From a virus, in the IMG/VR virus record IMGVR_UViG_3300028800_000087, positions 5,828 through 69,827 of that record: a stretch of DNA of 64,000 nt; one strand, given 5' to 3'. The notes beneath the pieces are model-generated. The model worked only from the letters and a program-made list of their open reading frames with translations, searched no databases and was not told where the DNA came from. Numbering within the stretch: the stretch's first letter is position 1; each line of letters opens with the position of its first letter. The translations under genes and the position numbers were made by a program. This document shows, in pieces, positions 2,000 to 58,729 of this stretch.

Positions 2000-2548
2000 T
2001 TAGGTGCCGGCGCCGCCGACAAAGCCGACGCTGATTTCAACGTTGCCATTGCTGTCGGCCGGGCCGTTGAACTGATAGAGTTCGGTATCAAGCGCCGCGG
2101 TGTTACCGCCCGATGCCGCGCTTTCGAAACCGCCCTGGATATGCGCGCCGGATGTTGCGGCGCACCAGACGAAGACCGCGCCGCCTTTCTTGACCGCAGC
2201 GCTGCCGGCCGGCAGGACCGTCATAATGTAGCCCATTCGCAGGATATCGATCGCGCCTGATGTCGGGGGCGCTGCCGATCCAAAGCCGATGGCGCCGTAG
2301 TCCTGATTAGTCTGCGGCTGCTGGATCGGGTAGGGGCGGACGGTCACGCCCCAAGGGGCAGTGATCGCGGTATCGCCGGCAGCAAACGGGCGGACGCCGT
2401 TGCTGGCCTGATCGATCACCACCGCCTGCCCATAAGCTGTGGGCGGGCTGCTGGCATCGATCAGCGCAGGCTCAATCGACGCAAAGTGGCGCCCGACATC
2501 GCCGGGGAAACCTGCCCCCATGCGAAAGGAAAAAGCTGTTCCAGACAT
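2000..2548 (-). CDS. Capsid decoration/cement protein
   Basis: 182 aa; FRMGAGFPGDV...GVTVRPYP...GPADSNGNVEI; lies between scaffold and capsid genes. Confidence 0.75.
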   Translation of the reverse strand: MSGTAFSFRMGAGFPGDVGRHFASIEPALIDASSPPTAYGQAVVIDQASNGVRPFAAGDTAITAPWGVTVRPYPIQQPQTNQDYGAIGFGSAAPPTSGAIDILRMGYIMTVLPAGSAAVKKGGAVFVWCAATSGAHIQGGFESAASGGNTAALDTELYQFNGPADSNGNVEISVGFVGGAGT

Positions 2549-2595
2549 TGCTCAGTTAACTCCGTTTGGTATGGGGTGGGGGCAGGCGCCGCCGG

Positions 2596-4089
2596 TTAAT
2601 GCGCCCAGGCGTTGTTCTTCTTCATCTCCTTGGCAATCTTGTTGAGATCGCCGGGCGTTGTGACCTTGCCGCGCACGCCCATGCCGCCGCCTGCGCCTTC
2701 CTGGGCCTGCTTGCGACCAAAGGCGAGGTCGTTGGCCTGCTGGGTGCGGGAGCCGCCGCCGACGTTGTTGGCAGCCGCCTTGTCACGGACCACCATGGAC
2801 AGCATAAGGCGTGCGGACTGGCAATCCATGGTGGCGAACGTTGGCATGCGGCCGCCGTTCAGTTCCATCATGGTCTTGGAGGCGCCGGGGTCCATCTTGA
2901 ACGCGGTCTCCAATGCCTCGCGCCGCATGGTGCACATCGCATCATAGGTCTTGGCCGGGCGCGCATCGCGCGTGAAGGTCGGCAGCTTGGCTCCGGGCAG
3001 CAGGACCTCGATCTGGCTGACCAGCTCTTGGTAGCTATCTTCCAGATACATGCTGTCCTTGGCCTTGCGCGCCTTGTCGCCGGTCCCAGGCGGGGATTCC
3101 ATCTCGAGTGCGCCCTCGATGGTCTCATCATCCTTGGACTTCTTTGCGTCCTTGGACTCCTTCTTGTCCTTGTCGTCCTCGTCCTCATCTTCCTTGGCAT
3201 CGCCGGTCATGCCCAGCTTCTTGAAGACCTTGTCGAGGCCCTTGGTCAGCCGGTCCACTGCATCGATCACCGAGGCGTCCAGCGCCTTGCGGTCTTCCAT
3301 TTCCTTCTTCTTCATCTTCTCCTCTTCCTCGTCCTCGTCGGGGTCCTTCTCGTCCTTGGACGCTTTCTTGTCCTCGCCGCCGGCGTGGATGTGGATGTGG
3401 CTTTCGTTGGCGCCGCCCTTGACCAGCTCCTCAGCCTCCTTGGCTGCGGACTCCGCATCGGCGACCTTATGCTTCGCCATGAGAGCGCGAAGCTTGTCCA
3501 GGGTGCTCATGTCATCGCATTCCTTACAGTTACAATCAGCGTCGTGGGGTTTGGCATCGCCAATGGAACAACGGTGACCACATCGGCCTTGGCTGACCAG
3601 CGCGACATGGTTAACGATGATGTTTTTCTGAACAGCCTCGCCGGGCGCAATCTGTTCATAGTCGGCATCATATCCAACCGAGACCTCAATCTTGTCGTCG
3701 GCAAGGATCATCTCGATGGCGTCCCGGTCATAGACCATGACCGTCCCGACGATTACATCACTGTCAGGGCCGTCGCCGCGCCTGGGGTCCATGATGGTTC
3801 CCATCGCAAGCAGGCGCCAGGTATCGGGGGTTACATCATCCTCTGGATGCTCATCGACCAAAGGCTTGCCGGAGAAGCTGGCCAGGGTACGCGGGGCAAA
3901 CACTTCCTCTGGATGCCGATGGACCTTGATCATCGGCTCGCCAACCTTGGGCTGGACGATCGGCAGCTCCAATGGATGGTATTCCTGCATGCCTGTGCGC
4001 GCCAGAGGCACATCAAAGCAGATAAGAAAGCCTTCCTTGGTCATGCGCCGGCGGGGGCTGACCTTTGAAGTTGTCAGATAGGTTTGCAT
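2596..4089 (-). CDS. Prohead protease/scaffold protein (DUF2213-like)
   Basis: GFLICFDVPLARTG, FSGKPLVDEHP, EVSVGYDADY and NHVALVSQGRCG motifs plus an acidic/lysine-rich scaffold tail; start placed at the ATG of MQTYLTT. Confidence 0.88.
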   Translation of the reverse strand: MQTYLTTSKVSPRRRMTKEGFLICFDVPLARTGMQEYHPLELPIVQPKVGEPMIKVHRHPEEVFAPRTLASFSGKPLVDEHPEDDVTPDTWRLLAMGTIMDPRRGDGPDSDVIVGTVMVYDRDAIEMILADDKIEVSVGYDADYEQIAPGEAVQKNIIVNHVALVSQGRCGHRCSIGDAKPHDADCNCKECDDMSTLDKLRALMAKHKVADAESAAKEAEELVKGGANESHIHIHAGGEDKKASKDEKDPDEDEEEEKMKKKEMEDRKALDASVIDAVDRLTKGLDKVFKKLGMTGDAKEDEDEDDKDKKESKDAKKSKDDETIEGALEMESPPGTGDKARKAKDSMYLEDSYQELVSQIEVLLPGAKLPTFTRDARPAKTYDAMCTMRREALETAFKMDPGASKTMMELNGGRMPTFATMDCQSARLMLSMVVRDKAAANNVGGGSRTQQANDLAFGRKQAQEGAGGGMGVRGKVTTPGDLNKIAKEMKKNNAWAH

Positions 4090-4104
4090 GATTATTAGGG
4101 GATA

Positions 4105-4150
4105 AAACGGAAAGACCCCGGTCAGGTGGTTGCGTTCCTGCCGGGGTCCT
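4105..4150 (-). terminator. Stem-loop followed by U-rich tract on the minus strand
   Basis: GACCCCGG(T)CAGG...CCTG-CCGGGGTC stem; minus strand continues TTTCCGTTTT. Confidence 0.55.
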
Positions 4151-4296
4151 CGTTCCAAGAGCCGATTTGGTTATATGATACTATGCGATAACGCATAGGC
4201 CCCTCCTTCAAAACAGCAGGCGATCGATCTCGGCCAGGGCGCAGAACAGCGCAAGGGCCAACAGCAATATACCAAACTGAATTGCGATCCAGCGCT

Positions 4297-4590
4297 TCAT
4301 TTTGTCGGCCGCTCGGCCATGATCTCCGGTGGCGGGTCCTCGACAAACTCAATCTTGAGGACGCGATGCCTGGGAAAGACAACCCGGCGCAGGCGTTCAG
4401 AGGAAGAATAGGGCTGATAAGGCTGGTCAATGCCGTCGATTGAAACCCAGTTATCTGAGCCAGCATCGACATCAATATCCTTGCCTTCATATTCCCGGGT
4501 CTCAACGCCGTTGCTTACCGTGACGAGCGTTGGTCCCTGCTGTTGGGCAAAAGCAGGCATGGGGGACAGCGTTACTACGACTTTATTCAT
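4297..4590 (-). CDS. Hypothetical protein
   Basis: 97-aa ORF co-oriented with the operon; AAGG RBS. Confidence 0.6.
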   Translation of the reverse strand: MNKVVVTLSPMPAFAQQQGPTLVTVSNGVETREYEGKDIDVDAGSDNWVSIDGIDQPYQPYSSSERLRRVVFPRHRVLKIEFVEDPPPEIMAERPTK

Positions 4591-4602
4591 AGTCAGGAAC
4601 CT

Positions 4603-5034
4603 TCAATGGATGATCTGCTGATGCGCGGCCTTGGTGACCGGGCTGGCGCCCATCGCGTCCTCGGCGAACTCGGGCTTATAGTCGGGGAAAGCCTGATGGA
4701 CCGCCATTGCGATCTCGGCCATGCTGACGCGCGGATACTTGACGGTCAGATTGATAACCAGTTGCTCAACCGATGCGCGGTCATAGCTGGCGCGGACAAA
4801 CTCAAATTGGGGGACCGATGGTAAGGCCACAACGGTCATGCGTGGGAACTCAACGCCCCATCGATCCTTGCAGCGCTCGCGCATCATGCGGAACAGATCG
4901 CGGTAACCCTGTAACTGATCGCGCCAGGGGGCGTTCTTGAGCGCAAGGTCGAGGCGCAGCTTGTCCATCCGGTCGCGCAGATCGGTCAGGATGGTTGCGC
5001 GATGTTCGCTTTCTTCAAGATCGATCAAAGCCAT
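4603..5034 (-). CDS. Hypothetical protein
   Basis: 143-aa ORF; GAGG RBS. Confidence 0.7.
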   Translation of the reverse strand: MALIDLEESEHRATILTDLRDRMDKLRLDLALKNAPWRDQLQGYRDLFRMMRERCKDRWGVEFPRMTVVALPSVPQFEFVRASYDRASVEQLVINLTVKYPRVSMAEIAMAVHQAFPDYKPEFAEDAMGASPVTKAAHQQIIH

Positions 5035-23892: not shown

Positions 23893-26454
23893 ATGGGCTT
23901 CTTCGTCCCTGATGAAGACCTGGATCGGCTTACCAAGCGCAAACCCATAACACCCAAGCCGGCCAAGGAACGCCGGCAACTGGACCCAGCATTGCGAGGC
24001 TGCAATCATTGCAGCCTTCGCCATGAATGGCGTTTCATCAACAGTCCAGAGATGCGGATCAGCGGCAATGTCCGCGATCCCGATATCCTGGTGCTGGGGG
24101 AGGCGCCGGGGGAGGAGGAGGACTATGCCGACAAGGCATTTGTAGGCCAGTCTGGCAAGCTGATCCGCCGCGTTATCCCAGGCCGGGAGCTTAGCCGCTG
24201 CGCCTTCCAGAACGTTGTAAGGTGCCGTCCCCAGGACAATCAGACCCCATCGCCTGCCGATGCCCATGCGTGTAGCATCCACCTTGAGGATGATGTCGCG
24301 GACTTTGACTTTCGCGCCATCCTTGGCGTTGGATCGGTCCCGCTGGCGCGCTATCTGCCAGGGCAGGCGATCACCCGCGTTCATGGTTGCCATTTCCCGG
24401 TGCAGATCGGGGACCGCGTTATGTGGTATATGCCGGTCCTGCATCCCAGCTTTGTCCTGCGATCCGGTGGCGATGGTGGACCGCATTTCCCGCACCTGAT
24501 GGCGGATACCAAGCGGCTGTTTGAGGGCCTGGACAGTTGGGGCAAGCCGCAGATCATCCGCCCCAATCCCGACGATGTCCTATATCCCAGGTCTTACAAC
24601 GATGTCCTGGCCATCCTGGCGGCTATGGACCTATCAGCGCCCCTTGGCCTGGATATCGAGACCACCGGCCTTTACTTTGCCCATAGGCAAGCGGAAATAC
24701 TGACAGCAGCGGTCAGCGATGGCACAATCAACATGGCATGGCCCATCATGCACCCAGAGGGCCGCACCGATTGGGGCCTGCGCGCGCTGTTGCATATAGC
24801 CGAGGGCAACGGGTGGGTCGCGCATAACGCGGCATTTGAACTTATCTGGATGATCGACCAAGCCGCGCGCGCCGGCATCCCATTTAAGCCGGCGCCCTTC
24901 CACGACAGCATGGCATGCGGTCGCATCTACTATCAGCGCGCGACCATCCTCAATCTTGAAGTGATGTCGCATCTGGCCCTTGGCCACAGCTTCAAGGAAG
25001 AAGGCGCCAACCTCAACAAGAACCGCATGGCGGAAGAACCGCTGGATCGGGTCTTGACTTACAACGGGATCGACGCACAAGCGCCCAACCTGATATGGCG
25101 CAAGCTGCGCCCGCTGGTCGATGATCGGCACTATGAACGTATCATCGAGACAATCGAGAGCTGCGTGGGTATGCAGCTCCTCGGCCTACCAATCGACCGT
25201 GATCTGAACGATGAGTTGGCGGATCATTGGCAAGCCAAGATCGATGCAGCGGTCAAGACCAGTCAAACAATCTACGAGGTCAAACAGTTCCAACGCGATC
25301 GGCAAGCAGAGTTCAACATCGGCAGCAATAAGGATGTGGGCATTGCGCTATCCGAGTATGGCCGCGTCCGCCTCGAAAAGATGGCCAGCGGTCAGCTCAA
25401 GACTGATGACCAGGAACTAAGGCTCAAGGCGCCGGATCATCCCTTGGTCCCGATCATCGTTGACTATCGCGAGGCCACCAAGGCCAAGTCCACCTACATC
25501 GACAGTCCGCGCAAGCTGGCTGACCTTGCGATCGATGGCAACATTCATCCAATCTACAACGCAATGAAGGTGGAGACCTGCCGGCTATCAAGCGAGATGC
25601 CCAATCAACAGAACTGGCCCAAGCGCAACGCGGAACAGGCGCCGATGCGGGCGCAGGTGATCCCGCCCAAGGGCATGATCTTCCTTTCGTTCGATTATGG
25701 CCAGATCGAGGCGCGCGGCATTGCTATGGCCAGCAAGGACCGCGCATTGTGCGAGTCAATAATTGATGGCGGGGATATTCATTCCAAATGGCTTAAACGC
25801 GCATTGGAAATATATCCGCCCTATTGGGACAACATGATCAAGCGTACCAATGAGACCAAGGATGATAAGATATTCAAAGGCGCACGTGACATCATAAAGA
25901 CTGACTTTGTATTTGCATCGTTCTTTGGATCAACGGCAGAGGCTTGCGCGGACCGATCCGGCCTTCCTTTGCATATTGCTCGTGACCTGCTGGCAGAGTT
26001 CTGGCGCGAGTATCCCGATGTCCTAAAGTATGTAAAATCCAAACAAGCCGAGTATGAGAAGACCGGCTCGGTGTCGCTGCTGACTGGCTTTATCCGGCGC
26101 GGGATCATGGAAGGCAACGAGTATATCAACACGCCAATCCAGGGTTCAACCACCGGCCATCTGGTGGTTGAGGCGCAGAACGATTGCGCCAAGCTGTCGC
26201 GGGAAACCGGCGACATCTGCCTGCATCCGCGCATGAATATCCATGATGATCTGACCTTCATAGTGCCGGACAATGAAGATGCGATCATGGGGTATATAGA
26301 CCAACTGGCGCCGATACTCCTCAAGGTCCGCTATAACTGGCAGATTGTCCCGCTGATGATTGAGGCGCGCATTGGCAAGAACTTCCGGGACTACGAAGAG
26401 ATTACCAAGATAACAGGAGACTACATCGATGCCGGATTTGGACAACGACGATAA
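23893..26454 (+). CDS. Family A DNA polymerase with N-terminal uracil-DNA-glycosylase domain and 3'-5' exonuclease
   Basis: CNHC, GEAPGEEED, FVGQSG, VRCRP and HPSF (family 4 UDG); LDIETTG, AHNAAFE and YNGID (exonuclease); DYGQIEAR, R...K..F and NIHDDL (Pol A motifs A/B/C). Confidence 0.95.
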   Translation: MGFFVPDEDLDRLTKRKPITPKPAKERRQLDPALRGCNHCSLRHEWRFINSPEMRISGNVRDPDILVLGEAPGEEEDYADKAFVGQSGKLIRRVIPGRELSRCAFQNVVRCRPQDNQTPSPADAHACSIHLEDDVADFDFRAILGVGSVPLARYLPGQAITRVHGCHFPVQIGDRVMWYMPVLHPSFVLRSGGDGGPHFPHLMADTKRLFEGLDSWGKPQIIRPNPDDVLYPRSYNDVLAILAAMDLSAPLGLDIETTGLYFAHRQAEILTAAVSDGTINMAWPIMHPEGRTDWGLRALLHIAEGNGWVAHNAAFELIWMIDQAARAGIPFKPAPFHDSMACGRIYYQRATILNLEVMSHLALGHSFKEEGANLNKNRMAEEPLDRVLTYNGIDAQAPNLIWRKLRPLVDDRHYERIIETIESCVGMQLLGLPIDRDLNDELADHWQAKIDAAVKTSQTIYEVKQFQRDRQAEFNIGSNKDVGIALSEYGRVRLEKMASGQLKTDDQELRLKAPDHPLVPIIVDYREATKAKSTYIDSPRKLADLAIDGNIHPIYNAMKVETCRLSSEMPNQQNWPKRNAEQAPMRAQVIPPKGMIFLSFDYGQIEARGIAMASKDRALCESIIDGGDIHSKWLKRALEIYPPYWDNMIKRTNETKDDKIFKGARDIIKTDFVFASFFGSTAEACADRSGLPLHIARDLLAEFWREYPDVLKYVKSKQAEYEKTGSVSLLTGFIRRGIMEGNEYINTPIQGSTTGHLVVEAQNDCAKLSRETGDICLHPRMNIHDDLTFIVPDNEDAIMGYIDQLAPILLKVRYNWQIVPLMIEARIGKNFRDYEEITKITGDYIDAGFGQRR

Positions 26455-26818
26455 GAAGCGCGACGATGGTTACCCCTGGGGCCATATCAGCTCGGAAGGC
26501 GACTGGGTTGCGCTACCCAAAGGCCCAATGCTGAAGGCCGGGTATGGACCGCCGCCGTTCGATCTGATCATGCCAGATGGGTCAACCCGGCATGTTGTCC
26601 ACCAGCCCGGTCATGGTCCCGGCGAGAAGCCGGCATGGGCCGCGCATATGGCAGCGCCCATGCCCAGCGCGGAAGTCAAGGATGGCAAGCTTTACAAGCT
26701 GACCGCGCGCTTGCGCTGGACTACCTATGCCTCCGGTCCATCGACCTTGGAACAAGCCTGGATCGCTGACGATGGCTCCATTGATTGGCGCGAAATCCCA
26801 GTTGAGCGCCAGCCATGA
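26429..26818 (+). CDS. Hypothetical protein
   Basis: 129 aa; AGGAG RBS; LEQAW...DG..WREIP. Confidence 0.65.
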   Translation: MPDLDNDDKKRDDGYPWGHISSEGDWVALPKGPMLKAGYGPPPFDLIMPDGSTRHVVHQPGHGPGEKPAWAAHMAAPMPSAEVKDGKLYKLTARLRWTTYASGPSTLEQAWIADDGSIDWREIPVERQP

Positions 26819-28800
26819 GCGATGGCGCGCTCATCACGAAGTATCGTCCCGCAGAGTGGGATGAGGTTGTTGGCAATGGGCGCGCGATCGACCATCTGCG
26901 CCGCGCCCTTGCCGCCGCAAGCAGCATGCCGCATTCGTTTCTGTTTACCGGGCCATCTGGGACCGGCAAGACAACGCTCGCGCGCATCATCGGCAAGGAG
27001 CTGAAGGCGGACATCGTTGAGATCGATGCGGCCAGCAATGCAGGCGTTGCCGATGCCCGACAGATCGTTGAGTTCGGCGAGCATGCATCCCTACATGGCG
27101 ATGGCAAGCGGCTGATCATCATCGATGAATGTTTTGCTGCCGGCAGTTTAGTGGATACCCCAAAAGGTGCGGTTCCAATAGAACAGCTACAAAAAGGGGA
27201 CGCAATCCTTGGCGCTCAAGGCGAAGCAAACATTGGGAAAATTATCAAAACGCGCGTCGAGTTGTCACGCATTGTCCAGTTGCGCTTGGCAACTGGACAG
27301 ACTATAGTTTGCTCCGAAGACCATCCTTTTCTTACGCCCCAAGGATGGATAGAGGCAAAAAATGTCCAATCAATATCAACACTTCGAGCCCAGCTATCAA
27401 CACCAGTGCTGCAAATGTGGGATAGCATTTATGAGCAACGGCGGTGGTTCCCGATGCTGTCAAACTTGCTCACGCAAGACTTGCCCGGTTTGCGGCGGGG
27501 GATATTGGAGTCGGGCAAACACCTGTTCCCGGATATGCGGCAACAAGATCGCGGCCAACAAACGAACTGGCCCGCGACCCGAGGACTGGAAACAATCAAT
27601 GCGGGTAGCGCAACAGAAGCGAGCGGCCAGCCCGAGGGGCAAAGAGTTAGCAGCTATGCATTCCGCGCGCATGACGCAAAACAATCCAATGCGCTTCCAA
27701 GCTGTTATACAAAAGATGATGGAAACCAAAAGCGCCAATGGAACATTGCGGCCCGTCAAACCCTGGCAAGGGGGCAACGGGCGAGGACCGACCACCCAAC
27801 AAGCTGCGATCCAAGCGGCGTTCCCGGGCAGCATTATGGAACTTGCTATTCGCACCGCGATGTTGGGTCCTCGCAAAACAACAGGATATCCCCATGCTTA
27901 CAAAGCAGACATAGCCTTTCCGGATATCAAGCTTGCGATCGAGATAGACGGGAGCACTCATCGATCAGCGGAAGGCCGCGTCCTCGATCAAAAGAAGGAC
28001 CAATGTCTTCAACAATTAGGGTGGAGAGTGTTGCGCATCTCCAACCGGCAGATATCCAGAGACTTCGACAAAGCGGTCAAACGCATCAAATCGGTGATAA
28101 GGAGTATGCGGACTTCTATGATCTTACAATCGACGGGCACCCATCCTTCTCAATCGAAGGATGCATAGTTCATAACTGCCATACCCTATCAAAGCCGGCA
28201 TGGCAGGCGTTGCTCAAGATACTCGAGGAACCGCCCCGCCATCTGTTCTTTGCGCTATGCACAACCGAGCTGGACAAGATCATCGAGACGGTCCGACAGC
28301 GCTGCTATCACTGCATCCTCAAGCCAGTCAGCCGCGAGGATACCCAAGACCTACTAGACGCAATCATTGCTGCTGAGCATATGCAGGTCAAGCCCGATGT
28401 GATGCAGATGATTGTGCAGGAATGCAACGGGTCACCGCGCAAGGCCATTTCCTTGTTACAGGTCGCGCATGATGCGCCCAACAAGGCCGAGGCGCAGCGC
28501 ATCATCAGCTTACAGGATGCATCCGACCCGCTGAAGGAACTGTTGCAGCTCTTTGTATCAGGCCGCAAGACATGGCCATTGGTCCGCGATCTGCTGCTCA
28601 AGATCAAGGAGCAGGACAGCTTCGAGGACTCGGTCATGCAGGCCGGCGGGTATATGGCTGCGGTCCTGATCAACCAGGAGGACGAGAAGCGGGCGCGCAT
28701 GGTCTGGCAGTTGTTGGATGCGCTGTTATTCCCGGTGACAACCTTTGACCGCAAGCAGCAGTTCATCGCCGCTGTTGGTCGCATGATGTGGGGAGGCTAA
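26815..28800 (+). CDS. Clamp loader (DnaX gamma/tau-like AAA+), intein-containing precursor
   Basis: KYRP.W.EVVGN, GPSGTGKTTLAR, EIDAASN, IIIDE|...|CH.LS..A..ALLK.LEEPP and GSPRKA motifs. Confidence 0.93.
   Translation: MSDGALITKYRPAEWDEVVGNGRAIDHLRRALAAASSMPHSFLFTGPSGTGKTTLARIIGKELKADIVEIDAASNAGVADARQIVEFGEHASLHGDGKRLIIIDECFAAGSLVDTPKGAVPIEQLQKGDAILGAQGEANIGKIIKTRVELSRIVQLRLATGQTIVCSEDHPFLTPQGWIEAKNVQSISTLRAQLSTPVLQMWDSIYEQRRWFPMLSNLLTQDLPGLRRGILESGKHLFPDMRQQDRGQQTNWPATRGLETINAGSATEASGQPEGQRVSSYAFRAHDAKQSNALPSCYTKDDGNQKRQWNIAARQTLARGQRARTDHPTSCDPSGVPGQHYGTCYSHRDVGSSQNNRISPCLQSRHSLSGYQACDRDRREHSSISGRPRPRSKEGPMSSTIRVESVAHLQPADIQRLRQSGQTHQIGDKEYADFYDLTIDGHPSFSIEGCIVHNCHTLSKPAWQALLKILEEPPRHLFFALCTTELDKIIETVRQRCYHCILKPVSREDTQDLLDAIIAAEHMQVKPDVMQMIVQECNGSPRKAISLLQVAHDAPNKAEAQRIISLQDASDPLKELLQLFVSGRKTWPLVRDLLLKIKEQDSFEDSVMQAGGYMAAVLINQEDEKRARMVWQLLDALLFPVTTFDRKQQFIAAVGRMMWGG
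27130..28176 (+). mobile_element. Intein, 349 aa, inserted in Walker B region (DE/CH)
   Basis: Block A CFAAGSLVDTPKG, block B CSEDHPFLT, block F FYDLTIDGHPSF, block G IVHN followed by Cys+1. Confidence 0.93.
27362..28168 (+). CDS. Zinc-finger + DUF559/Vsr-like endonuclease nested in the +1 frame of the intein
   Basis: 268 aa; CCKC, CQTC, CPVC and CSRIC motifs; NNPM; ADIAFPDIKLAIEIDGSTH...DQKKD..L...GWRVLR; GAGG just upstream of the ATG. Confidence 0.85.
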   Translation: MSNQYQHFEPSYQHQCCKCGIAFMSNGGGSRCCQTCSRKTCPVCGGGYWSRANTCSRICGNKIAANKRTGPRPEDWKQSMRVAQQKRAASPRGKELAAMHSARMTQNNPMRFQAVIQKMMETKSANGTLRPVKPWQGGNGRGPTTQQAAIQAAFPGSIMELAIRTAMLGPRKTTGYPHAYKADIAFPDIKLAIEIDGSTHRSAEGRVLDQKKDQCLQQLGWRVLRISNRQISRDFDKAVKRIKSVIRSMRTSMILQSTGTHPSQSKDA

Positions 28801-28801
28801 G

Positions 28802-29338
28802 TTGCCCATTTATATCTTTCACGAAGAAGACTATGTCCGGCTGCGCGATGGCCTCAAGAAAGGCATCGATGAGCTGCGGCTGGATGATGAGCTATTGCGA
28901 CAACCGGCATCCATGCAGGAGGTCGCGGAACACTGCGCGGGCGCGGTCAGGGATCGCGACATCTGCAAGCATGACCTGATCCTTGCGGAAGCGGAGGAGG
29001 CCAACAAACTCCGCCGGCTGACCGATGATAACGATAAGCCATTCTCGGAAGCCAGGGTCAACCGGGAACTGCCGTTGACCAAGTCAGTCCAGAAGGCAAC
29101 CGCCGTCATGGAGGATGCAGAGCATAGCGTCCGCATCTGGTCAGCGCTTACCGGCGCTTACAGCGACCTGGGCAGCGCTATCAGGCGCATCGCGGACCTA
29201 ACGACCGCCGGCTATCTGACGCCGTCCAGCGCCATGCGTGACCGGCGCGATGATATCAACGAGCTGCGCCAACAGATGAAGGAAAAGGAGGACCCCGATC
29301 CCCCCCTCAAGCAACGGGGCAGCCGTCGCAATGGATAG
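28802..29338 (+). CDS. Helical hypothetical protein, possibly a recombination mediator
   Basis: GGAGG RBS + TTG start; helical character; located before SSB and RecA (function inferred from position only). Confidence 0.6.
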   Translation: MPIYIFHEEDYVRLRDGLKKGIDELRLDDELLRQPASMQEVAEHCAGAVRDRDICKHDLILAEAEEANKLRRLTDDNDKPFSEARVNRELPLTKSVQKATAVMEDAEHSVRIWSALTGAYSDLGSAIRRIADLTTAGYLTPSSAMRDRRDDINELRQQMKEKEDPDPPLKQRGSRRNG

Positions 29339-29498
29339 TGCGCTCTCAGTTTTGAGCAGCGCTATCAGGCTGGGTCTGGGGGGTCTGGCCGCAATCCTAC
29401 TGGCGCTTCTATTGGTATATGCAGTCGTGCGCGTCGCGGGCGCTGCATGGAAGCGCAGCGTTGACCGCGACAATAACCCAAGGAGTGGAAATGGCTAA
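29331..29498 (+). CDS. 55-aa membrane protein (not in ORF track)
   Basis: MDSALSVLSSAIRLGLGGLAAILLALLLVYAVVRVAGAAWKR...; fills the gap, overlapping both neighbours. Confidence 0.5.
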   Translation: MDSALSVLSSAIRLGLGGLAAILLALLLVYAVVRVAGAAWKRSVDRDNNPRSGNG

Positions 29499-30792
29499 AG
29501 GGCGTTTTGAATATCGCGAGCGCGATGACAAGGACTGGGAGGATCGCGCCAATAATCAGGGGGCCGGTTTTACCAGCTTCATGAGCAATGAGTTCCGGAC
29601 CTATAGCCCGCAGAAGGGCGATAACTGGGTCCGCTTCATGCCGCCGACGTGGGAGGATGCGCGGCACTTCGGCCTGGATATCTTTGTCCATTACGGCATC
29701 GGCCCTGATCGCGGCGCAGTGCTTTGCCTTGCCAAGATGGGCGAGGAGGCAGAGAAGCGCGGCTTCGGCAACCGTTGTCCGATCTGCGAGGCCAGGACCA
29801 AGGCCAACCGGGCAGGGGATGAGGAGCTTGAGAAAGAACTCAAGTGGAATTACCGCGTCCTTTGCTGGGTTGTCGATATGAAGGATGAGGAACGCGGCCC
29901 GCTGCTCTGGTCCATGCCGCCCAGCCTGGACAAGAACTTCACAAAGCTGGCCAAGGACCGGCGATCTGGCCGGCTGCTGGTCATTGATCATCCCTGGGAC
30001 GGTTACAACGTCAGCTTTGATCGGTCAGGGGAACGGGATAGGACGCGCTATGAAGGGGAGCGCATCGACCGCGACCCATCCAGCGTCAATGAGGCCGACA
30101 TGGAATTTGTCGAGGATCATCCGTTGCCGGAGGTCCTGGTCTGGCGGGACTATGATGCGGTCAAGAAAATCTTCGACGGTGGGGTGCCACAAGATGATGA
30201 CGATAAAGATGCGCGGTCAGGAGGTGGTCGGCGCGATGCGCGTTCTCGCGATGATACTGATCGGGATCGCGGTTCCACTCGCGCTCGTGATAGCGGTGGT
30301 CGGGATGATGCTCGCTCTCGTGATGATGATGCTCGCAATCCCCGTGATCGCGATCGTACAACTCGCGATCGGGGTGGTGACGCTGACAGCCGGGACCGCG
30401 GTTCTGCTGATCGCCAGGGCGGTGACCGCGATCGGGGCGAGGATAGGTCGCGGGATCGGGAGGAAGCCCCCAGGGACCGCGCCAGCGGCCGGGACAGGGG
30501 CGATGATCGGGACCGGGAGACCCGGCGCGGTCGTGACGATGATCGGGAGGAGGCCAAGCCCAAGGAAGAGCCCTTGAAGCAACGGGGGGCCAGGGCGCGG
30601 GCAGCTGAGGAAGATAAGGCCAAGGATGAGCCGCCACCGCCCAATGATGATGATGCACGCGCCGGTCCGGCTGATGATGATCGCGGCCGGGATCGGGACA
30701 GGGGCCGAGATCGCGATGATACCCGCGACAGCGCCCGGTCGACATCCGCCAATCTCCGCGAGCGGTTCGGTAACCGCAACCGGGACCGCTAA
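29491..30792 (+). CDS. Single-stranded DNA-binding protein (T4 gp32-like) with long Arg/Asp tail
   Basis: GDNWVRFMPP, VHY, C...CPICE and IDHPWDGYN motifs; AAGGAG RBS; next to RecA. Confidence 0.75.
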   Translation: MAKGRFEYRERDDKDWEDRANNQGAGFTSFMSNEFRTYSPQKGDNWVRFMPPTWEDARHFGLDIFVHYGIGPDRGAVLCLAKMGEEAEKRGFGNRCPICEARTKANRAGDEELEKELKWNYRVLCWVVDMKDEERGPLLWSMPPSLDKNFTKLAKDRRSGRLLVIDHPWDGYNVSFDRSGERDRTRYEGERIDRDPSSVNEADMEFVEDHPLPEVLVWRDYDAVKKIFDGGVPQDDDDKDARSGGGRRDARSRDDTDRDRGSTRARDSGGRDDARSRDDDARNPRDRDRTTRDRGGDADSRDRGSADRQGGDRDRGEDRSRDREEAPRDRASGRDRGDDRDRETRRGRDDDREEAKPKEEPLKQRGARARAAEEDKAKDEPPPPNDDDARAGPADDDRGRDRDRGRDRDDTRDSARSTSANLRERFGNRNRDR

Positions 30793-56169: not shown

Positions 56170-56891
56170 GCTTCCAACGTCGCATCTTGTGGGTTGAACT
56201 TATCCCCTGGCTGGACCTGTTGCTGCCCGGTCTGTTGAACGGGCGTTGTCGCCTGGGGCTGGGCCTGCGCCGCACTGTTGATCGGGGCCTGGACAACGGT
56301 TGTCCGAGCAATGAATAGTTGGCGAAACTGGCCTTGGATAATCATGGCGTTTTCCAGCGCCTCATCCGTTCGGATCGTCAAGCCCTGGATCAGCATATTG
56401 TCGTAAGTGCGCTTGCCCGTGTAGATTTGCAGCAAGGTGCGCGTTGCCTGCAATGCAAGGAACCGTTGGTAAACCTGCTGTAGGAAACTGCTGTTGCCTT
56501 GCGGGAAGAACCCGGCAAGCGTCGGGATCGGGATGATGCCGGCAATGGTCGGCAGGCCGGATGCAAGGGCGCTGGATGTTGTGTATCCAAGGTCCATATG
56601 CAGCAGCGACGGCAGCTTGAATGCATGATCGCTGATCACTGACCCCTGTTCAACGGGATGGTCGGTGATGATCATCTCATCGTGATGTTCCTCAACCAGC
56701 GCCACATAGCCTGATATCCCCTGCTGGCGCCCGATCGGATTGGTTGTAATCGTCGGGGCGCCATCCGGTCCCTGGACCATCGTTGATGATGGAACCGGCC
56801 AAACGATCTGGCGCGTTGGCTTGGCGACAATAGAGCTGATGATCGACCGGACATAGCCGGCGCCCGAGAAGGCAGTTGCAAAGCCGCTCAT
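56166..56891 (-). CDS. Baseplate/tail tube initiator (Dit-like)
   Basis: E.H.D...ITDHPVE.G..ISDHA and TGKR.Y.NMLI motifs. Confidence 0.8.
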   Translation of the reverse strand: MSGFATAFSGAGYVRSIISSIVAKPTRQIVWPVPSSTMVQGPDGAPTITTNPIGRQQGISGYVALVEEHHDEMIITDHPVEQGSVISDHAFKLPSLLHMDLGYTTSSALASGLPTIAGIIPIPTLAGFFPQGNSSFLQQVYQRFLALQATRTLLQIYTGKRTYDNMLIQGLTIRTDEALENAMIIQGQFRQLFIARTTVVQAPINSAAQAQPQATTPVQQTGQQQVQPGDKFNPQDATLEA

Positions 56892-58729
56892 GCAAGGACC
56901 GCTGTGCGGAAGTCCCGCACCATTGATGCATTAGCCTGTTCCAGAGATCGCCTGACATTGTGGCCGGTTTCAGTGCCGGTGCCGCCCGGCTGGACGGTCA
57001 CGTTGTTGTTGTTATGAATGGTCACGTGCTTATCGCCCCCGTTATTGGTCGTTACCGGGGCGCCAGCGCCGAGCGGGGTTGCATGGCCGGACTGGTTCAT
57101 CATGCGCTCGATCTTGCTGATGTAGTTGGAAGTCTCGCGGGGAAGGTGATCGCGCCACTTATCGCCAAATTGTTGAATATCCTTCATCACATTGCCCTCG
57201 CCCCAATTATAGCCGGCAAGGGCTTGGGCAACATTGCCCTTGAACATCGTCAAAAGATCATGCAGGTAATCCGATGCGCCACGCGCAGCCTGCTTAAAAT
57301 CAAAGGGGTTGCCCACGCCATAGCGGCGCGCAGTCCCAGGCATAAATTGAAAGTCGCCTTCCGCACCTGCGGGGGATCGGGTATTGCGCCCGCGACCTGA
57401 TTCGGTTGCCCAGACCGCATCAAGAACGCCGCCCGGCAGACTGCGGGTGCCTTCTAGAAAGCGGAAGAGAGAGGCAGAGGTCGCGGATGTTGCCGCATCG
57501 GGCATAGGACCGGGCGCTGATTGCTTTTGCACCCCGCCTGGGGCGGCGCCACCGGGGGCAGTTGATTTGCCGCTACCGAACCCAAACAAACCAAGGAACT
57601 TGTCGATCATATCAGGCGTCGATGGGATGTTCTTGTAGGTATCCTTGTTTGGCTTCATGCTATCGCCGGTGATCCCATGCGACTCCAACAGCGTTATGAG
57701 CTGGGTCAGCAGTCCATAGACCAAGCCCAGCGGGCCAAACATCCGATACAGAATAATGTCGGCAATGGCCTCAAAGACCAGCCGCCACTTGTCGGTCTGG
57801 CCGGTCAGCTTGGCGATCAGATCAAACAACGGGTTGAGGTCGTTGATGATAAGCTGGACGCCGCTGGCCATCTCCTTGAAGACCGCCAGGATATCCTTGC
57901 CGTGATCCAACAGGAACTTAGTGATCTTTTCCGCCCAATCCAGGACGGTGTTGGCCATCTGGATCAGCGCGGCGGTGATCTGATCGCTGTTAGCCAGCAA
58001 CCACTTTTTGAGGCTATCAAGTTCCGGCCTCAACCGCGTCTCAATAGCGGTTGAAATTTTGATCCACATCAACTCAACGACTTCGCCCAACGAGCGAAGT
58101 GACCGCATAAACTCAACGCCAGTCTTGGCGGCATCGGTCAGGTTGACCCCGACCTGACGCGCCATATCGCGCCATTCCTGCTCGCGCAGTTTGACCTGAT
58201 CCATGTTCTGCAGAAGCTGATACAGCGTCCGCGAACTGATCCCAAACATTTCGCCATACTGCGCGGCGATATAGAACGGCATCTTACGAAGGCGCTCAAG
58301 CAGATCGCCTTCAATCTCAACCGTGTCCCGCAGATTGCCTTTCAGGTCGCGGGTCGCAACGCCAAGATGGCGCAGCAAAGCCTCATTGCCAGGATTGGTA
58401 CGGATGGCGCTGGCAAGGCTTTCCAACGCGCCGGCTGCATCGCCAGCCGATAACCCGACCTGTCGAAATGCATATTCAAAGGCTTTAAGTGTTTCAACAG
58501 CAGCGCCGGACCGCTGGGAGATATAATAAAGCTGCTCCATCGCGGACGCGGTTGCAATGACGGCAGCCTTGATCGCCGCGGCTGCTGCCTGCAAGGACAG
58601 GACCAGTTTGCCGGCAGCCTTGGTCATCCCATCGATTGTTGAGAAGAACGAGCGCACATCGTTCTGATGGACATCGACGCCCAGACCGATCAGGAACTCG
58701 CGAATGGTCGAGCGGCTGGTGCCTGACAT
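56888..58729 (-). CDS. Tape measure protein with lytic transglycosylase domain
   Basis: Helical N-terminus; TES, GAEG.FQFMPGTA, ALAGYNWGEGN and PRET.NY SLT motifs. Confidence 0.88.
   Translation of the reverse strand: MSGTSRSTIREFLIGLGVDVHQNDVRSFFSTIDGMTKAAGKLVLSLQAAAAAIKAAVIATASAMEQLYYISQRSGAAVETLKAFEYAFRQVGLSAGDAAGALESLASAIRTNPGNEALLRHLGVATRDLKGNLRDTVEIEGDLLERLRKMPFYIAAQYGEMFGISSRTLYQLLQNMDQVKLREQEWRDMARQVGVNLTDAAKTGVEFMRSLRSLGEVVELMWIKISTAIETRLRPELDSLKKWLLANSDQITAALIQMANTVLDWAEKITKFLLDHGKDILAVFKEMASGVQLIINDLNPLFDLIAKLTGQTDKWRLVFEAIADIILYRMFGPLGLVYGLLTQLITLLESHGITGDSMKPNKDTYKNIPSTPDMIDKFLGLFGFGSGKSTAPGGAAPGGVQKQSAPGPMPDAATSATSASLFRFLEGTRSLPGGVLDAVWATESGRGRNTRSPAGAEGDFQFMPGTARRYGVGNPFDFKQAARGASDYLHDLLTMFKGNVAQALAGYNWGEGNVMKDIQQFGDKWRDHLPRETSNYISKIERMMNQSGHATPLGAGAPVTTNNGGDKHVTIHNNNNVTVQPGGTGTETGHNVRRSLEQANASMVRDFRTAVLA

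Follow-up and report, generated by a model that had tools for sequence, protein, structure and literature searches.

The virus record IMGVR_UViG_3300028800_000087 comprises 69,827 bases and was judged complete; the window analysed here, a stretch of 64,000 nucleotides (nt), is part of that record. Our subject is a phage clamp-loader gene in this window that is interrupted by an intein, together with a second gene, in the +1 frame of the same strand, that is nested within the intein and encodes a putative homing endonuclease. The host gene (26815..28800, plus strand) belongs to a replication module that also holds a gene at 23893-26454. It encodes 661 amino acids (aa), and its reading frame, frame 0, is stop-free over 26815-28797. 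Its product matches the Pfam families DNA_pol3_delta2 (E = 1e-14) and AAA (E = 5e-10) and the PHROG family 'clamp loader of DNA polymerase' (E = 3.9e-54). The N-extein of this AAA+ ATPase (26815..27129, plus strand) is supported by the PHROG match and by a PF00004 AAA match at aa 43-106; it contains a Walker A motif, GPSGTGKT, and its C-terminal end is the Walker B motif, IIIDE. The C-extein (28177..28800, plus strand) begins CHTLSK and matches DNA_pol3_delta2 at 1.2e-8.

The intein, which is of the class 1 type, occupies 27130..28176 on the plus strand and is 349 aa long in frame 0. It begins CFAAGS, ends IVHN before the Cys at +1, and is inserted at the Walker B junction DE/CH (the slash marks the insertion point throughout). 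The splicing residues Cys1, His65 in block B, His348-Asn349 and Cys+1 are all present, and in 60 related inteins C1 and N349 never vary and H65 and H348 hardly ever do. Pfam Hint_2 matched the intein at 33.3 bits (cut-off 28.4) and Intein_splicing at 32.1 bits, under its cut-off of 35.8, and there was no LAGLIDADG or HNH family among the five Pfam matches listed at E<=1. An AlphaFold2 model built with the 60 relatives has a confidently folded lobe at each end. The N-terminal Hint lobe, with blocks A and B, spans aa 1 to about 87 (27130..27390, plus strand; predicted local distance difference test score, pLDDT, 94-98) and includes the Hint_2 match at aa 1-46. The C-terminal Hint lobe, with blocks F and G, spans aa 295-349 (28012..28176, plus strand; pLDDT 87-98) and agrees with the consensus of the relatives. 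Foldseek returned 35 PDB matches to the model at E<=1e-3, of which those listed are nearly all inteins or other Hint domains; the top match, to which the N-terminal lobe contributes, is the gp41-1 intein (E = 1.2e-6). The linker between the lobes (27391..28011, plus strand) is open in frame 0 but its protein is not conserved: helices are predicted with moderate confidence for aa 91-145, and aa 151-270 are predicted to be disordered (pLDDT 38-48). On this evidence the identity of 27130-28176 as an intein is confirmed, and splicing is predicted.

The nested open reading frame (ORF) lies at 27362..28168 on the plus strand, encodes 268 aa and is offset from the host frame by +1, (27362-26815) mod 3 being 1, so that 807 nt are open in both frames. 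It has its own ATG, with a GAGG Shine-Dalgarno-like core (27352..27355, plus strand) 6 nt before it. A TAG at 27350-27352 shuts the +1 frame three codons ahead of the ATG, and a run of six A residues (GCAAAAAATG, 27357-27362) coincides with the nested start. The ORF covers the linker and continues into the C-terminal Hint lobe, where 28012-28111 are confidently folded in both frames: the DNA of the splicing lobe also codes for the last strand and helix of the nuclease (aa 217-250, pLDDT 94-97), the same bases being read as GWRVLR in +1 and as RVESV in frame 0.

The +1 product matches Pfam DUF559 over aa 180-246 (E = 1.6e-10; 41.3 bits against a cut-off of 20.6). Its AlphaFold2 model, for which, as for the conservation columns, we used an alignment with ten relatives, has a mean pLDDT of 76.5; in blocks of ten residues aa 70-260 mostly score 79-97, falling to 55-73 near aa 121-140. 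The top PDB structure match by Foldseek is 3r3p, the catalytic domain of I-Bth0305I (E = 3.6e-3, probability 1.00, template modelling score 0.65 on the target), followed by the DUF559 protein 3hrl and E. coli Vsr, 1vsr. When the alignment profile was compared with the PDB, 3hrl was matched at 3.4e-10 and 3r3p at 7.7e-6. The catalytic domain, Vsr-like and of the EDxHD type, extends over about aa 156-250 (27827..28111, plus strand). E194 (27941-27943), D196 (27947-27949), H200 (27959-27961) and D209 (27986-27988), all on the plus strand, are the counterparts of the composite EDxHD motif defined for the I-Bth0305I family (PMC3239194, in the part available); in the ten relatives E194, D196 and D209 are invariant and H200 is nearly so. 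Fold and profile thus confirm the +1 ORF as a Vsr-like/EDxHD nuclease, for which DNA cleavage is predicted.

The N-terminal half of the nuclease is of a different kind. Two CxxC...CxxC(x) clusters at aa 16-59 (27407..27538, plus strand), whose CxxC columns are partly conserved, were modelled with low confidence and may form a zinc-ribbon-like DNA-binding module. A motif of the form S-x-R-M-x3-N-P-M follows at aa 101-110 (27662..27691, plus strand), within helices of pLDDT 86-93; S101, R103, M104, N108, P109 and M110 are nearly invariant. A GGNG motif also lies ahead of the catalytic domain. A role in DNA binding seems probable for the CxxC pairs and both motifs, which stand where no NUMOD family was detected among the Pfam matches of the +1 product at E<=1. 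A second ORF of the same phage, at about 56728-56916 on the minus strand (locus L006), weakly matches the Cys-rich region of the nuclease (aa 20-82, E = 7.9e-5, 34% identity).

A first-pass annotation of this DNA, made from the letters alone, had described much of this arrangement. The 349-aa intein with intact splicing blocks, its filler-like centre with neither LAGLIDADG nor HNH motif, the uninterrupted 268-aa ORF with its own ATG and GAGG in DNA open in both frames for 807 nt, and the DUF559/Vsr-like nuclease were all borne out. The structure prediction that it had suggested for both frames gave a nuclease fold in +1 and Hint lobes in frame 0, and the NNPM segment that it had picked out belongs to the conserved motif at aa 101-110. 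Its Cys4 zinc-finger repeats fared less well: the CxxC pairs are there, but they matched no family and fall in the part modelled with low confidence.

A perfect hairpin of 11-12 bp (TGTCCAGTTGC/GCAACTGGACA; 27272-27300, plus strand) lies in the DNA encoding the N-terminal Hint lobe, some 60 nt upstream of the nested ATG, and the 103-nt stretch around it folds with a z score of -3.95. We considered this hairpin as a conserved regulator of the family and rejected it, since loci L004 and L086 lack the stem and in L007 and L008 it is weak. A scan for promoters and terminators over 26300-29000 gave four promoter-like sites against 1.6 expected, none of them positioned for the nested ORF.

Selection on the two frames

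Two long reading frames in the same DNA could be open by chance, and we therefore asked what frame 0 would look like if only the nuclease had been preserved. Synonymous codons of the nuclease were resampled or permuted under four schemes of 3000 trials each, the protein sequence being kept. Frame 0 was open in 0/3000 shuffles under every scheme, with a mean of 8.1-13.8 stops expected, and the +2 frame and the three reverse frames contain 6-13 stops over the same stretch. Codon choice agrees: in the overlap of this phage a T-ending codon precedes none of the 57 stop-prone positions and 46 of the 210 others. The same avoidance was found in 98 relatives, where a T-ending codon precedes one stop-prone site in 7310 as against 4765 of 18052 other sites, the mean number of stops expected being 11.6. 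Because frame 0 is open in none of the shuffles and stop-prone positions avoid T-ending codons, the double openness is not due to chance.

Comparison by codon phase identified the frame whose protein is preserved. Between this copy and L004, the differences at nuclease codon positions 1, 2 and 3 are 0.34, 0.33 and 0.54, and the same bases give 57% aa identity when translated in +1 and 33% in frame 0. An excess of third-position differences and a better-kept +1 translation were found in 15/15 pairs formed by this copy and five relatives of the clamp-loader group. In five close pairs, differences at frame-0 positions 1, 2 and 3 number 230, 129 and 651 in the flanks and 100, 57 and 53 in the overlap (chi-square p = 1.6e-24); within the overlap, frame-0 position 1 is position 3 of the nuclease. 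Since the differences follow the codon phase of the nuclease, selection acts on the +1 protein and is purifying, and the frame-0 linker shows almost nothing but avoidance of stops.

The accuracy of the letters was checked against contigs of other runs. Those of run X2 (three contigs, 27078-28160) and of run X3 (in parts) reproduce the overlap. Run X1, which may be the source sample, has four contigs that cover 26700-28700 apart from 37 bases. In all of these contigs there are 0 differences and 0 gaps. This agreement makes frame errors unlikely.

Recurrence of the layout among related loci

The arrangement is not peculiar to this phage. A blastn search with 26000-29500 against 50,697 phage records found no match. 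Relatives were collected at the protein level by taking the loci that best fitted a profile of this nuclease. Alignment-based scans of viral and metagenome contigs yielded 80 loci each, of which we examined 115, namely the 80 viral loci and the 35 metagenome loci with longer matches; the other 45 metagenome loci (L118, L120-L122, L125-L165) were left out, most being short matches to the catalytic domain only. The nuclease is nested in a longer ORF on the same strand in 111/115 loci, and the offset is +1 in every one of them. The closest nucleases, those of L004 and L086, share 55% and 47% identity with the one studied here. A word-index protein search with the nuclease found nine proteins, and a profile search of 1.84 billion representatives, a library that carries no genomic context, found 657 clusters at E<=1e-30.

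The spanning ORFs are inteins at one kind of site. A profile search located both junctions in 96 of 100 non-redundant spanning ORFs; of these 96 inteins, all have Cys as the first residue, 89 have HN at the end, 73 have CH as the next two residues of the host, 83 stand after DE and 8 after DExH. The hosts are clamp loaders and superfamily 2 (SF2) helicases: the C-exteins of 95 non-redundant loci comprise 39 with DNA_pol3_delta2, 30 with Helicase_C, 8 with ResIII and 7 that are SNF2-related. These groups were drawn from Pfam counts on the C-exteins, single-linkage BLAST having merged 99 loci with intein remnants included. The nested ORFs in turn look like genes with starts of their own. A start codon precedes the first CxxC in 98 of 99 non-redundant cases and is ATG in 93; a Shine-Dalgarno core of at least 4 nt lies upstream of the candidate start in 61/99, against a background of 6.4% per start-like triplet; and in most loci the +1 frame is shut 0-15 codons before the start.

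Named phages share the layout. A tblastn search of GenBank phages gave 40 records, and in the three looked at in detail, Vibrio phage CP-T1, Pseudomonas phage MR14 and Vibrio phage 1.088.O (L001, L002 and L003), the nuclease lies in +1 under an annotated helicase, with the intein at DE/CH(H). The nested ORFs are 249, 241 and 261 aa long in the ORF listing, and the GenBank annotation there is of the helicase alone.

The four loci that are not nested are of two kinds. In L075 (1926-4415) and L082 (1983-4415) the gene is fractured: the N-terminal part of a helicase and of the intein ends in a stop, the nuclease follows in +1, and the C-terminal parts of intein and extein form an ORF of their own, in the original frame, which overlaps the 3' end of the nuclease. 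The nucleases of L114 and L101 are free-standing. That of L114 (124-741) immediately precedes, with a slight overlap, a helicase that has no intein (689-2431) and whose motif II is DECHH; it looks like a free-standing homing gene beside its likely target. Near the nuclease of L101 there is no intein. The first-pass annotation had named stops in the +1 frame of close homologues as evidence against its proposal; the 111/115 nested loci, all in +1, bear the proposal out, and in one nested locus, L087, the nuclease (2800-3459) is broken by a stop at 3178-3180 and the intein frame (2166-4637) stays open. L087 is a decaying nuclease inside an intact intein.

Mobility of the element and alternative explanations

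Three pairs of related phages bear the signature of recent homing, in that their inteins are more alike than their exteins. Identity is 98-100% in the intein and 81-93% in the exteins for L026 and L033, 91-99% and 63-87% for L027 and L030, and 89-99% and 77-96% for L039 and L069. In all three the limits of the high-identity block are those of the intein, and the block includes the N-terminal lobe; this lobe is not overlapped by the nuclease, so dual coding alone is insufficient to account for the high identity. The insertion site is also suggestive of a shared target. Clamp loaders that have no intein (L166-L168) run through it uninterrupted as FIIDE/CHGLS, and a DNA core of GAY GAR/TGY CAY, preceded by NTN codons, is common to 79 loci with the intein after DE, making this core a plausible common target. 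In a further pair, L026 and L028, the last 300 nt (L026 3458-3757) are 90-95% identical and the remainder of the intein 98-100%, which suggests a recombination breakpoint within the element.

We consider it highly probable that the locus is a mobile intein in the clamp loader of an uncultivated phage, with a homing endonuclease overprinted in +1 as a separate gene. The nuclease gene would be laid over the linker and the beginning of the C-terminal splicing lobe instead of forming a domain of the intein polypeptide. Ribosomes in frame 0 would make the 661-aa precursor, in which the two Hint lobes, joined by a linker of about 200 aa with a central 120 residues predicted to be disordered, would remove the intein by splicing to leave an active clamp loader of about 312 aa. 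Some ribosomes would initiate, at a low level, at the internal GAGG-N6-ATG and produce the 268-aa protein, with a Cys-rich and helical DNA-binding part at its N-terminus and the Vsr-like/EDxHD nuclease at its C-terminus. In a co-infection the nuclease would cut the intein-less allele near the GAY GAR/TGY CAY core, and repair from the intein-bearing genome would copy the whole element in. All of the computational tests that we ran agree with a composite selfish element of this kind, as the first-pass annotation had proposed, with translation of the nested gene, splicing and cleavage as its predicted steps.

Several points weigh against this interpretation. Internal initiation, splicing, cleavage and the position of the cleavage site are all deduced from sequence and models, and initiation within a frame that is already being translated may be inefficient. 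No RNA run containing the stretch was found, and a Shine-Dalgarno core of at least 4 nt was not seen in 38 of the 99 relatives. The Foldseek E-values of the nuclease are modest, 3.6e-3 at best, and its Cys-rich N-terminus is the part modelled with low confidence. The proportion of 111/115 describes near relatives and not Vsr-like nucleases at large, because the loci were chosen with a profile of this nuclease. Recent transfer was demonstrated for relatives and not for this copy, whose lineage has no close relative. Finally, no intein-less joint was present in the four runs examined, all as contigs, which drop rare variants.

The last two points would also be expected if the nuclease of this phage were an inactive passenger, fixed late in the homing cycle, its +1 ORF open by inheritance and the intein kept by the need to splice. 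The nearest nucleases are so distant (L004 and L086) that no recent transfer of this copy is demonstrable, and the decayed nuclease of L087, in an intein frame that is still open, illustrates such a state. We nevertheless judge this improbable for the present copy: its 268 codons are intact and have a start and a Shine-Dalgarno core, the four catalytic residues and the conserved motifs are retained, and divergence tracks the nuclease codon phase, as purifying selection over that time requires.

A little less probable again is that the nuclease is made but serves chiefly for something other than intein homing, for example cutting the genomes of competing phages (marker exclusion) or host DNA, the overlap being a matter of genome economy. 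Homing-type nucleases of phages do mediate the exclusion of competitors, and the free-standing relatives, one upstream of an intein-less DECHH helicase (L114) and one without an intein nearby (L101), fit with such a role. Yet 111/115 relatives reside within inteins at one kind of site, and the high-identity block follows the intein boundaries in three pairs as homing predicts; exclusion and homing can, moreover, coexist.

The A6 run exactly at the nested start raises the question of whether ribosomes instead enter the nuclease frame through a programmed shift of +1 (or -2), or whether slippage during transcription leads there, with a fusion of N-extein, N-terminal intein and nuclease as the product. 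This is very unlikely, because the TAG that shuts the +1 frame, three codons ahead of the nested start, confines any shift to 9 nt, and because the A-run is not common to the relatives, being absent from the same place in L004, L086, L007 and L008; the start codons of 98/99 relatives, the Shine-Dalgarno cores of 61/99 and the closure of the +1 frame 0-15 codons before the start in most loci are likewise at odds with it. An artefact, in the form of two compensating errors in what is a metagenome-assembled record or of an alternative frame open by chance, has a negligible probability and is refuted as far as computation allows by the identical, gap-free contigs of X2 and X3, and of X1 over nearly the whole stretch, by the +1 layout of 111 independent loci, and by the 0/3000 shuffles with frame 0 open beside 6-13 stops in each of the other four frames.

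Relation to known systems and wider implications

The idea of an intein nuclease encoded out of frame is already in print, and the first-pass annotation was right to advise caution about novelty. The available text of a survey of actinobacteriophages (bioRxiv 10.1101/2025.01.02.630785) describes intein nucleases that are antisense LAGLIDADG, antisense VSR-like or, in frame 3, endonuclease-VII-like, and that of a study of a cyanobacterial dnaX intein (bioRxiv 10.64898/2026.09.14.751524) describes a LAGLIDADG nuclease in the +2 frame; both preprints cite Gorbalenya 1998. As far as these texts go, the present element resembles their non-canonical inteins in having a nuclease ORF that lies between the splicing lobes but is not in the frame of the intein, in the predicted disorder of the frame-0 stretch and the purifying selection on the alternative frame, and in an origin, proposed there, from a mini-intein that a free-standing nuclease gene had invaded. 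The two features by which such inteins are recognised, an ORF in another frame between the lobes and purifying selection on that frame, are both found here. With the cyanobacterial case it shares a clamp-loader host and a site next to Walker B, that intein adjoining the Walker B motif of the clamp loader (PMC4760082, available part). Unlike the cases described in those parts of the preprints, the nuclease here is Vsr-like/EDxHD, is read from the same strand in +1 and has a Cys-rich N-terminus; the overlap reaches the folded C-terminal Hint lobe; and the layout occurs in more than 100 loci over clamp loaders and SF2 helicases.

A parallel in nuclease family and gene order is found in the 'fractured genes' of Dassa et al. 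2009 (PMC2677866), in which, according to the passages available, a free-standing Vsr-like or GIY-YIG endonuclease gene separates the halves of a split intein; a 'gp41-1' structure is modelled there. Common to those loci, as there presented, and to ours are a Vsr-like nuclease, the order on one strand of N-extein with N-terminal intein, nuclease, and C-terminal intein with C-extein, an overlap between the 3' end of the nuclease and the start of the C-terminal intein part, and hosts that are phage replication genes. The difference is that in our phage the host gene is not broken into two ORFs: no frame-0 stop occurs over 26815-28797, the intein is contiguous, and splicing would be in cis. The nuclease ORF is wholly overlapped here, whereas the fractured genes, in the same passages, have intergenic gaps of 27-51 bases, and contiguous overlapped forms were not found in those passages of PMC2677866. 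The relatives L075 and L082 are themselves fractured. The gp41-1 intein, the closest structure to the splicing domain of our element, presumably comes from the loci that Dassa and colleagues described.

In the structure of its catalytic domain, the +1 product is most like I-Bth0305I, the 266-aa prototype of the EDxHD homing endonucleases, which is carried by a group I intron in a phage recA gene (Taylor et al. 2011, PMC3239194, available part; PDB 3r3p). The two share a catalytic fold, the composite E, D, H and D residues, a similar size (268 and 266 aa) and the order of an N-terminal DNA-binding region, predicted in our case, before a C-terminal nuclease. They are only 18-19% identical over the aligned fold, and I-Bth0305I, as described there, has N-terminal motifs of the NUMOD/helix-turn-helix type and is borne by an intron, whereas our nuclease has CxxC clusters and SxRMxxxNPM and lies inside an intein. 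The insertion element of phage ShiLan (PMC11855218, available part) is comparable as an in-frame insertion in a phage gene, there a methylase, that hides an out-of-frame homing nuclease; that nuclease is however HNH, and the element, in the part seen, is not identifiable as an intein. Our literature search did not find, on any contiguous intein, a Vsr-like nuclease overlapped in +1 on the same strand, though such cases may be listed in the supplementary tables of the actinophage survey, nor did it find a report of the scale of such a layout or of its spread across clamp loaders and helicases.

These observations invite a broader reading, which we offer tentatively and rate just short of an even chance: that they represent a large and apparently uncatalogued lineage of phage inteins at the Walker B/motif II DE/CH site of P-loop ATPases, in which the linker and the first C-terminal Hint strands are permanently overprinted by a Vsr-like/EDxHD gene whose phase is always +1. 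If so, the overlap would lock nuclease and intein together, because the nuclease could not be deleted without loss of part of the splicing domain. The GAY GAR/TGY CAY core would allow the element to switch exteins by jumping among unrelated ATPases, such as clamp loaders, DEAH helicases and SNF2 helicases. A route to split inteins would also be available: after the C-terminal part had acquired its own start, nonsense mutations in the host frame would convert the contiguous element into a fractured gene, and the contiguous overlapped form would supply the intermediate that has been missing in the descent of natural split inteins like gp41-1. The proposed succession, in which the nuclease is first free-standing, then carried by an intein and finally associated with a split intein, is testable because contiguous, fractured, free-standing and decayed forms coexist in one lineage.

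The layout matters for annotation as well. Gene callers and annotators miss the nested gene, as they did in the three GenBank phages annotated with a 'helicase' alone, and an intein census based on in-frame nuclease domains would record these elements as having no nuclease. With its fixed phase in more than 100 loci, the overlap is a clean natural case of overprinting in which selection preserves the protein of one frame and, in the other, does little more than keep stops out. Protein ligation and DNA targeting are practical fields in which relatives of gp41-1-like splicing domains and of EDxHD nucleases are of interest.

The neighbouring gene of the replication module (23893-26454, plus strand) encodes an 853-aa fusion of a uracil-DNA-glycosylase superfamily domain (aa 58-192, E = 1.6e-15) with a family A DNA polymerase (E = 3.1e-46). 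In L004 the same polymerase is followed by a small ORF and then by the clamp loader.

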